This document shows positions 5,272 through 14,515 of a DNA stretch of 25,572 nt, in pieces. The notes under the pieces were generated by a model that saw nothing but the letters and a program-made list of their open reading frames with translations, was not told where the DNA came from and searched no databases. Positions within the stretch are counted from its first letter, which is position 1. Every line of letters begins with the position of its first letter. The DNA lies in the IMG/VR virus record IMGVR_UViG_2910903598_000005, positions 133,058 to 158,629 of that record. One strand, written 5' to 3'. This stretch comes from a virus. Lineage: Duplodnaviria > Heunggongvirae > Uroviricota > Caudoviricetes. The position numbers and the translations under genes were made by a program.

Positions 5272-6096
5272 ATGGCTTTGATTGGAGCAATTTTAGGAGA
5301 TATTTGCGGTTCTCAATATGAGTTCCGCAGACCTCACAATTTAGATTGGAAGAACTGTGAATTGTTTACAGATAAATGTAAATACACAGATGATACAGTT
5401 CTCAGTATTGCAACAGGTATGTGGTTGTTAGATGAAACCAATAAAGAACCTTGGGAGTTCTATTTAGAATATGGTAAGAAATATTCTGGCGTAGGATATG
5501 GAGAAATGTTCGAAGACTGGTTGTACGATGATGGAAACCATGTAAACGAGAGTTTTGGCAATGGATGCGCAATGAGAGTTTCACCAATTATGATGTATTT
5601 TAATGGATTTTCAGACAATCCAGATGCATTTAAATTTTATATTGATATTGCACGATATACATGTGAGAAAACCCACAGCCACTCAGAATCTTACAAAGGA
5701 GCATCGGTTGTGACAAGTTGTTCTTTTATGGCTCGTTGGGGCAGATCAAAAGAAGAAATTTACAAATATGCCTTAAGGTTTTATCCATCTAGTCAGTATA
5801 CATATGGTGTTGATCGACCACTTGAAGATTATAGAAAGAATTATGTTTGGTCTGCGACAGTTCAAGATAGTGTGCCTGTGGCAATTAGATGTTTCTTGGA
5901 AAGCGAAGATTATGAATCATTTTTAAGAAATGTATTATCTTTGCCATGTGACACAGACACGATTGCTGCTATTGGCGGTGGTATTGCAGAAGATTTCTAC
6001 AAGAAGACACTTGATAACTCAAATGAGCTTTTAGAAAGATATTTGCCAAAAGAATTATTAGATGATGTAAGTAAAATTTACAATGAAATGCCATAA
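5272..6096 (+). CDS. ADP-ribosylglycohydrolase (DraG/ARH family)
   Basis: GAILGDICGS, YTDDT, GNGCAMR, THSH and DTDTIAAIGGGIA motifs. Confidence 0.92.
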   Translation: MALIGAILGDICGSQYEFRRPHNLDWKNCELFTDKCKYTDDTVLSIATGMWLLDETNKEPWEFYLEYGKKYSGVGYGEMFEDWLYDDGNHVNESFGNGCAMRVSPIMMYFNGFSDNPDAFKFYIDIARYTCEKTHSHSESYKGASVVTSCSFMARWGRSKEEIYKYALRFYPSSQYTYGVDRPLEDYRKNYVWSATVQDSVPVAIRCFLESEDYESFLRNVLSLPCDTDTIAAIGGGIAEDFYKKTLDNSNELLERYLPKELLDDVSKIYNEMP

Positions 6097-6111
6097 GGTA
6101 GGTGATTCAAT

Positions 6112-6315
6112 ATCATAAAGAAAATCTTAAAATTTTTCTTGTCGATGATCGTACTGACCATCGTCTGGTTTCTTGCAACATTCATATCTGTTGGTGTATT
6201 TGCATTTGCGTTTTGGATAATAACAAATATTGTAATACCAATTGGAGTAGTAGTAATTGTAACAATTGTATTAATGGCGATCGCCTTCTATGTGGTGACA
6301 TCGTTCATGGATTGA
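6112..6315 (+). CDS. Small membrane protein, probably with a non-canonical ATC/ATA start
   Basis: Frame reads IIKKILKFFLSMIVLTIVWFLATFISVGVFAFAFWIITNIVIPIGVVVIVTIVLMAIAFYVVTSFMD*. SD AGGTGA at 6100-6105 with an in-frame TGA at 6103. Confidence 0.6.
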   Translation: MIKKILKFFLSMIVLTIVWFLATFISVGVFAFAFWIITNIVIPIGVVVIVTIVLMAIAFYVVTSFMD

Positions 6316-6337
6316 TAAATTAAAAGGAGAATATATT

Positions 6338-6898
6338 ATGAGAATTAAAAAATTATTAATCGCTGGAGCATTAATGTTAACAGCAGTAGGATGCGTTTCA
6401 GCATATACTATTTATGCAGATACACTAAATAATAACACTGATAAACAGGTTTCTGCAACAACAGAAGGTAAGTCAACTACAGAAACTACAAAGAACACAA
6501 CAGAGCAGAAAAATAATAAGAAAAATGCCGTCAAAGAAGATTCTAAAGATACAACAAATGATGTATCGGCAACAACAGAAGAAGAAAAAAATACTGAAAA
6601 TTCTACCGCAGACGATACAGACGATGCAGATTATACAGAACCAGAATACCCAGATGACGCAGATGAAACCTGTGATCATGTGTGGTCAGAAAAAACAATT
6701 GCATATGATGAAGAGAATGGATATCATTGGACAACTTATTGCGAAAAATGTGGAACTGTTAAAACAGAGCCAGCCACAGAAGAGGATTATGAAAGACTCG
6801 ACCCTGCAACAAAAGTAAAAGAAGAAGATATTGAATATGTAGATGATGATTCTGCTGAGGTCGTAGAGGAATCGTCAGAAACAGCAACTGAAAACTAA
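6338..6898 (+). CDS. Exported acidic low-complexity protein with a small C-x-H...CxxC metal-binding motif
   Basis: Signal peptide, T/K/D/E-rich linker and TCDHVW...TTYCEKCG. Confidence 0.75.
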   Translation: MRIKKLLIAGALMLTAVGCVSAYTIYADTLNNNTDKQVSATTEGKSTTETTKNTTEQKNNKKNAVKEDSKDTTNDVSATTEEEKNTENSTADDTDDADYTEPEYPDDADETCDHVWSEKTIAYDEENGYHWTTYCEKCGTVKTEPATEEDYERLDPATKVKEEDIEYVDDDSAEVVEESSETATEN

Positions 6899-12460: not shown

Positions 12461-14005
12461 ATGACAGAAAATAAAAACAAAACTTCAAGAAATAAAACAT
12501 GGAAATTAGTAAATTTTTGCGAGTTTGATAAATTTGCTATCAAATCTTATTGTACAGTACATAACGTAGATGAATCGCTAAATCTTGGTGATATTACAAA
12601 AGTGGATGAAACAAAACTCAAACCATTTAATATGATTTGTGGAGGATCACCGTGCCAGGACTTTAGTATTGCAGGGAAAGGAAAAGGTTCGGTTTGGACT
12701 TGCAAACACTGTGGACATACTTATAACCCATTAACAGTCCATTGGTCTGAACGTGATGCGTGTCCAGAATGTGGCTCAAAAGATATTGAAAAGACAAGAT
12801 CCTCTTTATTGGTTGAATACTTAAGAGTTATTCGTGCCAATAAGCCAAACTTTGGTATTTATGAAAATGTAAAAAATATTGTAGGTAAAAAATTTAAAGA
12901 TACAACATTTAAATTATTTACACAGGAACTTGAAGAATATGGATATAACGTATATTGGCAAGTGCTTAACGCAAAACATTATGGTATTCCACAAAATAGA
13001 GAAAGAGTGTATCTAATCTTTATTAAGAATGAATTAGATAATGGAAAGTTTAAATATCCAGAACCATTTGATAATGGTGTTCGATTAAAAGATATTTTAG
13101 ATGACGAAGTGGATGAAAAATTCTATATCTCCAAAGATAAAGTGCAAAGATTTTTAACAAATCTTAATAATAAAGATGCTTTATTATATGATGCATGTCA
13201 GGTAAAAAGAGAAGGAAAATCAAGAGAATATAATAATTTTTGTCCTACGTTAACGTCCAGAGATTATAAAGATCCACGTCTTGTTAATGACAACATTGTA
13301 AAACAAATTGGCTCAATTTCAAAATGTGAAGGTAATTGGAATAACCCTCAAGTTGGGAGAATTTACAGCACAGATGGATGTAGCCCAACATTAAATACTT
13401 GTGGTGGCGGTAGCCATGAACCAAAGATTGTGCAGCTAGGAAATGTTAATCCATCTGGCAATGGTATGAATGGAAATGTATATGACAATGACGGGATTAG
13501 TCCAACGGTCACGACAAATAAAGGCGAAGGGTTAAAAGTAGCAATTAAACAGGCAACTAAGAAAGGCTATACGGAGTGTGAAGTTGGTGGCGTTGCAGAT
13601 CTTTCATATCCAAACTCCAAATCCAGAAGAGGCAGAGTTCAAGAAGATGGCAAAATTTGTCCGACTTTGACTGCAACCGAGACAGGAGTGTGCAGAATTG
13701 AATCAGATATTAGAATCCGAAAATTAACACCAAAAGAATGTTGGAGATTGATGGGATTTGATGATAAATCATTCAAGGCTGCTGAACAGGTAAATAGCAA
13801 CAGTCAGTTATATAAACAGGCAGGGAATTCAATTGTTGTAGATGTTTTATATTACATATTTGTTGAATTATACAAAGCAATGCCATATCTATTTGACAAT
13901 CTTAAGTTAAGCAGTTTCTTTTCTGGCATTGGAGCATTTGAGGTGGCATTAGATCGATTATATCAGGGAATTAATGAAGGAAATTTTATCAAAGGAGAAG
14001 AGTAG
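12461..14005 (+). CDS. DNA (cytosine-5)-methyltransferase, circularly permuted, multi-TRD
   Basis: Motif order II (CEFD, aa 20-23), III (GDI), IV (GGSPCQ, aa 61-66), VI (ENV), VIII (PQNRERVY), variable region, IX (RKLTPKECWRLMGF), X (KQAGNS), then I (FFSGIG, aa 486-491). Confidence 0.93.
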   Translation: MTENKNKTSRNKTWKLVNFCEFDKFAIKSYCTVHNVDESLNLGDITKVDETKLKPFNMICGGSPCQDFSIAGKGKGSVWTCKHCGHTYNPLTVHWSERDACPECGSKDIEKTRSSLLVEYLRVIRANKPNFGIYENVKNIVGKKFKDTTFKLFTQELEEYGYNVYWQVLNAKHYGIPQNRERVYLIFIKNELDNGKFKYPEPFDNGVRLKDILDDEVDEKFYISKDKVQRFLTNLNNKDALLYDACQVKREGKSREYNNFCPTLTSRDYKDPRLVNDNIVKQIGSISKCEGNWNNPQVGRIYSTDGCSPTLNTCGGGSHEPKIVQLGNVNPSGNGMNGNVYDNDGISPTVTTNKGEGLKVAIKQATKKGYTECEVGGVADLSYPNSKSRRGRVQEDGKICPTLTATETGVCRIESDIRIRKLTPKECWRLMGFDDKSFKAAEQVNSNSQLYKQAGNSIVVDVLYYIFVELYKAMPYLFDNLKLSSFFSGIGAFEVALDRLYQGINEGNFIKGEE

Positions 14006-14015
14006 CTTCTTCTCC
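13981..14015 (+). other. Predicted -1 programmed ribosomal frameshift signal
   Basis: In-frame slippery heptamer A_AAT_TTT (13981-13987), 6-nt spacer, hairpin GGAGAAGA-gtagct-TCTTCTCC (13994-14015), and upstream SD-like AGGGA (13965-13969). Confidence 0.7.
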
Positions 14016-14229
14016 AGAAATTAGTTTATTTCCATGCGTTTTAAAATATCAGAGAACCGAATATGCAAAAAAAATTCGAAAGAAATATGAGGCTGGATTG
14101 ATTCAAGAACGTATGTGCAATATGAGAGAATATGCGTTTAGAACAGACGGTATATCAAATACGCTAACGACGGTTTCAAAAGATAATTACATTTGTGAAT
14201 ACGAGGAGGAATATGAGCGAAAAGAATAG
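13987..14229 (+). CDS. -1 frame extension of the methyltransferase (80 aa, TRD-like module)
   Basis: YQRRRVASSPEISLFPCVLKYQRTEYAKKIRKKYEAGLIQERMCNMREYAFRTDGISNTLTTVSKDNYICEYEEEYERKE*. The frame is open from 13978 and has no SD-linked start of its own. Confidence 0.65.
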   Translation, partial: YQRRRVASSPEISLFPCVLKYQRTEYAKKIRKKYEAGLIQERMCNMREYAFRTDGISNTLTTVSKDNYICEYEEEYERKE

Positions 14230-14515
14230 ATATTTAGACAATTTATATTCACAGTGTCAAAGTTGTGCTAATAGGTATACTTCTTTTGAGTGTGCTTTAT
14301 GCGAAGACTTTGACATGTACAAAGAGGAATATAAAGAAGACAAAGAAGTAAAAGAACCAAATACAATTACGATCATTAAATTTGACGACTGGCAATCTAT
14401 TGAAGTCAATGGGACTAAAATAGAAAACCATAAATTAGATGTTGATGATTTTACAGATGTTTTAAAGGAATTAGGGTTCAAAGTCAACGTAGTATGGGAG
14501 GATTCAGATGTTTAA
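14213..14515 (+). CDS. Hypothetical protein with N-terminal CxxC...CxxC
   Basis: GAGGAGG SD before ATG 14213. CQSC...CALC. Confidence 0.7.
   Translation: MSEKNRYLDNLYSQCQSCANRYTSFECALCEDFDMYKEEYKEDKEVKEPNTITIIKFDDWQSIEVNGTKIENHKLDVDDFTDVLKELGFKVNVVWEDSDV

Follow-up and report, generated by a model that had tools for sequence, protein, structure and literature searches.

A probable programmed −1 frameshift linking an exchangeable recognition module to a phage C5 cytosine methyltransferase

The methylase gene and the −1 frame behind it

We analysed the 3′ end of a cytosine methyltransferase gene, together with the open −1 reading frame that follows it, in a tailed phage (Caudoviricetes) represented by IMG/VR virus record IMGVR_UViG_2910903598_000005. 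The DNA analysed, referred to below as the window, is a 25,572-nucleotide (nt) stretch corresponding to positions 133,058 to 158,629 of that record. According to the list of open reading frames (ORFs), the gene lies at 12461..14005 on the plus strand and encodes a protein of 514 amino acids (aa) that matches the C5 cytosine methyltransferase family PF00145 with an E-value of 5e-60. The translation starts at motif II, with PCQ, ENV, QNRER, motifs IX and X and FxGxG all readable, and the motif order is permuted: motifs II to VIII are followed by four TL-type recognition modules, motifs IX and X and, at the C-terminus, motif I (FSGIGAF). The assignment of the four modules, which are of the TL/TV type and fill the variable region between motifs VIII and IX, is based on inspection of the sequence only. 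A DNA search of phage GenBank records yielded a short match between the window and the SPR methylase gene; the matches in these records were to distant methylases only, and none was to an annotated relative. Judged by its motifs, the window gene is a phage multispecific C5 cytosine methyltransferase (hereafter methylase) with a permuted architecture. Homologues of 511–515 aa, which number in the thousands, share the same end point and carry tails such as IKGEE, TNPQAD or TK after a conserved GNF.

The putative frameshift signal includes the GNF codons of the window (all of its elements are on the plus strand). The codons GGA AAT TTT hold the slippery heptamer A_AAT_TTT at 13981..13987, in the X_XXY_YYZ phase and five codons before the TAG stop. 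A 6-nt spacer, ATCAAA (13988..13993), separates the heptamer from the stem of a hairpin (13994..14015), in which positions 13994–14002 pair with 14007–14015 and the zero-frame TAG (14003–14005) is held in a 4-nt loop. The stem, described in an earlier note on this DNA as a perfect 8-bp hairpin, consists of eight Watson–Crick pairs and comes to 9 bp when one G-U pair is counted, with a predicted energy of −12.4 kcal/mol (RNAfold). When the whole 96-nt region is folded, the z-score is −0.24, and the meaningful structure is the local hairpin only. Upstream, 11 nt before the heptamer, a Shine–Dalgarno (SD)-like AGGGA (13965..13969) may act as a 5′ stimulator; in the alignment, AAGGA or GAGGA occupies this site in most relatives, the element is absent in some, and it overlaps conserved codons. 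Stems of at least 9 bp start at 10 of the 25,532 window positions, and the methylase ORF has only three in-phase XXXYYYZ heptamers; the co-occurrence of heptamer and stem in the window is unlikely by chance.

Two stops, TAA TGA at 13972–13977, close the −1 frame, which from there is open as far as a TAG at 14227–14229, so a shift into it is possible only within about 28 nt, in the overlap at 13978–14005. Read after a slip, this frame would give an extension of 80 codons (13987..14229, plus strand) that begins with YQRR, ends at the TAG and offers no start codon that could be used; the predicted products are thus 514 aa and 589 aa long, the latter with the junction ...EGNF/YQRR. Translation confirmed the open frame and both product lengths claimed in the earlier note, and the in-phase heptamer, the spacer, the stop-in-loop hairpin and the AGGGA all lie where it had placed them.

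The frame break itself is real DNA, since contigs from two independent studies, spanning 13700–14209 and 13700–14298, carry 9 and 33 substitutions, respectively, and no indel. An indel or assembly error, which the note had named as one way in which its proposal could fail, is excluded by these two assemblies. One of the two contigs, from the gut, has TAA in place of the loop TAG, with the stem intact.

The extension carries a putative target-recognition domain (TRD), the core of which spans 14053..14194 on the plus strand, from RTEYAKKIRK to TDGISNTLTT and SKDNYI. In a canonical C5 methylase from Bacteroides phage BT24, residues 356–403 are 58% identical to the window module; they are located in the variable region between motifs VIII and IX. 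A sister module aligns with residues 237–270 of M.HhaI, inside the same variable region, with an E-value of 0.017. The TRD-like nature ascribed to the appended module is thus borne out by both comparisons and, on the strength of such homology, the −1 ORFs of this family are recognition-domain-encoding. They comprise at least 10 module types, with 36 distinct peptides in one scan. A comparison across the family found no close copy of the −1 module among the internal modules of its own enzyme, for which reason an added specificity fits better than a redundant one. In deeper alignments MAFFT repeatedly misplaced the modules, which are short, against internal recognition domains.

The −1 frame is under purifying selection, as the earlier note had anticipated. 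The ratio of nonsynonymous to synonymous polymorphism (pN/pS) of this frame is 0.09–0.28 in eight module groups, as compared to mostly 0.5–6 in the other two frames, and it is 0.14 for the window's module type in relatives. The further claim that the ORF has no start of its own agrees with the wider comparison: no conserved start codon was found across module types, one 103-codon −1 ORF type is devoid of any ATG, GTG or TTG, and in the window the in-frame starts lie only at codon 41 or later, inside the module.

A separate feature of the window module is a run of eight A at 14067–14074, where the module frame reads GCA AAA AAA ATT and thereby contains a slippery A_AAA_AAA. In two relatives, L035 and L089, 2 nt are missing at the corresponding shorter A run and the module frame is broken. 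It is possible that the run is an indel hotspot or a second recoding site.

Conservation and exchange of the junction among relatives

We compared about 100 loci: 80 from viral contigs, 4 from assemblies and 12 from genomes, plus loci from pattern scans. The 80 viral-contig loci show 52–99% protein identity and come mostly from gut phage contigs of about 150 kb. Among the distinct junctions, which are related to one another, an in-phase A_AAT_TTT is present in 39 of the 42 that have a −1 ORF of at least 40 codons, and in 4 of the 10 without a module. The first codon of the heptamer is GGA, GAA or AGA (AAA at second connectors), so that the amino acid varies and the final A stays; the G-N-F codons are kept as A_AAT_TTT in homologues as the earlier note had expected, with G, E, R or K in first position. 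In these genes Gly is encoded by GGA in 43% of cases, Asn by AAT in 79% and Phe by TTT in 74%, so codon bias alone does not account for the retention of the heptamer.

Every cassette-bearing class has a predicted stem 5–6 nt 3′ of the heptamer. In the 11-bp stem of the main class, pairing reaches 97.5% across 36 distinct sequences, and 5 of the 11 pairs are changed on both sides. None of 500 shuffles matched the observed paired percentage, the number of doubly changed cells or the covariation score, and slid controls were 37–50% paired. The covariation predicted for the hairpin is thus present, in the form of compensatory changes in the main-class stem. The window belongs to another class, shared with L039, and its stem is unrelated to that of the main class and occupies the same place at the same spacing.

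The spacer, the hairpin and the module behave as an exchangeable cassette (13989..14204, no strand assigned) with conserved flanks on both sides. The nearest relative, G001, is 98% identical to the window up to 13993 and 95% identical from 14205, and has a different cassette of 233 nt between these points, in which the same plan recurs: the heptamer, a 6-nt spacer, a different hairpin that holds the stop in its loop, and a −1 frame that is open and codes for another module. Similarly, a wastewater contig has 237 other letters in place of 13989–14204.

Cassettes can also be stacked. Four contigs (L069/L100, L109, L121 and L128) carry two in series, in three module combinations; the first module ends in ...NF with a second A_AAT_TTT, followed by a 6-nt spacer, a stop-in-loop hairpin and a module in the next −1 frame. 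A pattern scan of metagenomes returned 33 loci, most of them chance matches, and three true double cassettes. Furthermore, three −1 ORFs of up to about 200 codons (L197, L211 and L193) contain three or four recognition modules fused in frame, which indicates that modules are linked both with and without recoding connectors.

Natural fusions to the methylase frame exist as well. In L045 a 5-nt deletion in the hairpin loop removes the stop and locks the −1 frame, giving a continuous protein of 643 aa; L070 is a continuous ORF of 540 aa; and many more distant relatives have in-frame recognition domains after motif I. These cases indicate that the fusion is viable and that the frameshift-requiring form is the commoner one. 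The earlier note had held that homologues with a continuous ORF would point to a simple indel in the window: such homologues do exist, but as rare, derived exceptions among dozens of independently assembled, frameshift-requiring loci they do not carry that implication. L070 belongs to a separate clade, 57–63% identical, in which the module is in frame in L070 (1486–3105) and one base off in L053 (3015–3191) and L059 (2964–3143). L070 differs from these two sisters by one C in a short C-run, and the difference may represent an indel on/off switch or a tetramer-type slip.

Finally, the connector is not confined to permuted enzymes. The same connector and −1 modules follow motif X in canonical-order multispecific methylases (L155, L165:9563-11182, L170, L175 and L178), in which motif I is N-terminal and the C-terminal tail ends in ...DERLQGNF. 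The connector is hence not dependent on motif permutation, and the suggestion that it is the permutation that frees a C-terminus for the module is not supported.

Interpretation and rival explanations

Taken together, heptamer retention, stem covariation and selection on the −1 frame support the proposal of a programmed −1 frameshift, and we consider it very probable that the connector is a functional signal of this kind. For most ribosomes, the TAG in the loop of the hairpin would end translation, giving the 514-aa enzyme. A fraction would pause at the hairpin, 6 nt further on, while tRNA-Asn and tRNA-Phe occupy AAU UUU; both tRNAs could then re-pair one base back, on AAA UUU, and 80 more codons would be read. 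The predicted product is the 589-aa isoform, with one more target-recognition module at its C-terminus. A_AAU_UUU is one of the H_HH.U_UU.Y motifs, a group that ranks with the most efficient for −1 frameshifting in Escherichia coli (Sharma et al., PMC4066793). We infer that slipping occurs from the signals, their conservation, the selection, the missing starts and the natural fusions; the extended isoform would be sub-stoichiometric. A search of sequencing runs returned none of RNA for this locus. That the module adds a methylation target is suggested, with moderate confidence, by its homology and its non-redundancy. The module would probably serve to have one more target methylated, and thereby to protect against one more restriction enzyme of the host, with translation setting the dose.

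In the same scheme, the unit of spacer, hairpin and module would be a portable cassette that recombines between phages at the conserved flanks. Whether the connector serves more generally as a portable translational joint is, in our judgement, evenly balanced: exchanged and stacked modules would then give nested isoforms dosed as 1-p, p(1-p) and p squared, so that anti-restriction methylation could be graded and diversified at the level of translation in both permuted and canonical enzymes.

Several observations weigh against the frameshift interpretation. The junction counts do not represent independent events, as the junctions compared are related. The covariation figures are those of the main-class stem, and variants of the window's stem class are too few for a separate test; moreover, the arms of the stem are themselves coding sequence in two frames, and part of their conservation may be due to this. 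One locus, L036, has an intact module and a broken heptamer (GGA AAC TTT), and the L053/L059 clade needs a −1 shift yet has neither heptamer nor hairpin, only C-runs. The module is decayed, broken or deleted in the L012 type, L030, L035, L037, L041, L063 and L089, and is therefore dispensable and sometimes lost. Lastly, a structure prediction of the L070 fusion, made from the family alignment, reached a mean predicted local distance difference test score (pLDDT) of 50, with all recognition-domain regions below 50. At these scores the model does not show where a module attached after motif I or motif X would dock or how it would gain access to the DNA cleft.

Among the rival explanations, the one that fares best, though we hold it to be quite improbable, takes the cassettes to be silent donor copies and the connector to be a recombination site, with expression only after a DNA rearrangement or an indel. 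The precise cassette swaps at conserved flanks between near-identical phages would fit such a scheme, as would L045 and the L053/L059/L070 clade if regarded as on and off states that differ by small indels. However, no recombinase is linked to the locus, the assemblies compared are without indel heterogeneity, and the modules never closely match internal recognition domains of the same family, hence there is no sign of transfer to the expressed array. A recombination site would, furthermore, need neither the codon phase nor the 6-nt spacing to a stop-in-loop stem. Recombination at the flanks clearly occurs, but it is compatible with frameshifting and does not replace it.

We give very little credence to the idea that the module is what recombination has left of an earlier methylase gene or recognition domain, untranslated and decaying next to an incidental heptamer and hairpin. 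The loci with lost or damaged modules listed above are what one would expect of it, and AAT and TTT are preferred codons in these AT-rich genes. It is contradicted by the purifying selection on the −1 frame in eight module groups, by a stem that covaries and a heptamer that tracks the presence of the module, and by the fact that all of the at least 10 module types are open and all are in the −1 frame; serial cassettes and in-frame fusions speak against it too.

Production of the module as a separate small protein, by re-initiation behind the zero-frame stop or from a non-canonical start, to act as a specificity subunit in trans, we likewise regard as highly unlikely. Split forms of related methylases provide a parallel, and codon 41 of the window's −1 ORF is a TTG accompanied by an SD-like sequence. 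This TTG would, however, remove the conserved first half of the module. Starts are not conserved, and some −1 ORFs offer no ATG, GTG or TTG at all. Nor would an independent protein account for the natural in-frame fusions or for the constant 6 nt between the in-phase heptamer and the stem. The split forms referred to are many short proteins that consist of motifs IX-X-I and recognition domains only, and they suggest that two-gene forms of the enzyme exist.

A sequencing or assembly error, or a frame break corrected by transcriptional slippage, is vanishingly improbable: apart from A3T4 being a short homopolymer pair nothing specific points to it, the same frame arrangement recurs in dozens of independent assemblies, and the homopolymers concerned, three A and four T, are much shorter than those on which polymerases are known to slip, so that we rejected slippage for want of sufficiently long runs. 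We also rejected reassignment of the stop codon, since relatives have TAA instead of the TAG, and 12 codons further on the zero frame meets another stop.

Genomic setting and comparison with known systems

Other features of the enzyme and its surroundings are of interest in their own right. Between motif IV (PCQ) and motif VI (ENV), at window positions 12695–12799, the methylase contains a CxxC...CxxC zinc-ribbon-like insertion of about 35 aa, which is conserved in the family and has weak Pfam matches (Zn_ribbon_8, HypA); C5 methylases do not usually contain such an insertion. One related protein, P0191, has motif X, motif I and motif II onward in a single chain (P0237, P0223, P0244, L092 and L094 are listed alongside it), and may be a tandem-duplication intermediate of the circular permutation. 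Immediately downstream of the methylase, a gene at 14213..14515 on the plus strand, which starts with MSEKNRYL, overlaps the end of the −1 extension with its first codons. In L005 an IS605 OrfB/TnpB-type gene (5355–6584) is inserted directly downstream of the cassette. In relatives, the methylase has neighbours with an anti-defence look: SIR2, a PARG-like macro domain, NAPRTase, isochorismatase and a CCA-adding enzyme. Such a setting, noted for the flanks of L003–L006 and the window neighbourhood, would fit a counter-defence island.

In bacteria and phages, only a small number of gene classes are known to use programmed frameshifting, namely dnaX, transposases, tail chaperones and some others. 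If the proposed frameshift is true, DNA methyltransferases join these classes, with a shifted frame that carries an exchangeable specificity module and, where sites are stacked, a requirement for two shifts in a row. The frameshift bears on the ways in which phages adjust and vary their protection against host restriction, and it would explain 'truncated' methylases that gene callers report with an orphan intergenic stretch trailing them. Natural, compact and portable −1 frameshift cassettes would, if active there, become available from phages of gut Firmicutes. The tolerance of C5 methylases for recognition domains after motif X or after a transposed motif I is, moreover, relevant to specificity engineering. 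In the literature searched, including the Antonov 2013 survey and part of the Atkins 2016 review, we came upon no frameshift in a C5 methylase and no recognition modules linked by recoding.

Phase-variable methyltransferases resemble the system described here in that the recognition part is switched and the methylated sites vary, be it through repeats in Type III mod genes or inversion of Type I hsdS. Those switches, however, are heritable changes of the DNA and produce mixed populations, whereas here both isoforms would arise in one cell from unchanged DNA. Neither a repeat tract at 13981–14005 nor an invertase was found, and indels in C-runs occur only in the separate L053/L059/L070 clade.

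As methylases, the closest likeness is to the Bacillus phage enzymes M.SPRI, M.Phi3TI, M.Rho11sI and M.H2I, orphan C5 methylases with one core and tandem recognition domains, each of which is thought to serve one target. The window enzyme departs from the canonical motif order of the SPR, phi3T, rho11s and H2 type, from I to X, in that its motif I comes after motif X, and is thus distinct in architecture. In M.phiBssHII the recognition domains reportedly lie at separated locations. In contrast to the known multispecific enzymes, the recognition domains of which are all encoded in one frame, the extra domain would here be gained via recoding.

The tail assembly chaperone G/GT of lambda and most tailed phages is alike in that a conserved −1 shift produces a minor isoform whose C-terminus is extended by a further domain. 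It differs in protein class and function, and the extension described here is modular and is swapped between close relatives.

In the arrangement of its signals, the connector is similar to the −1 frameshift sites of E. coli dnaX (tau/gamma) and of IS3/IS911: an in-phase X_XXY_YYZ heptamer and a stem-loop about 6 nt downstream, together with an SD-like element about 10–11 nt upstream that is only a candidate stimulator in the methylase. In these systems one mRNA gives two isoforms at a ratio set by translation, and the same is predicted for the methylase. While the dnaX and IS3 type uses A_AAA_AAG, the heptamer here is A_AAU_UUU. The shift would lengthen the protein as it does in IS3, whereas that in dnaX shortens it. 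Unlike in either, the shifted frame of the methylase encodes an exchangeable DNA-recognition module, and passage through stacked cassettes would take two shifts in succession.

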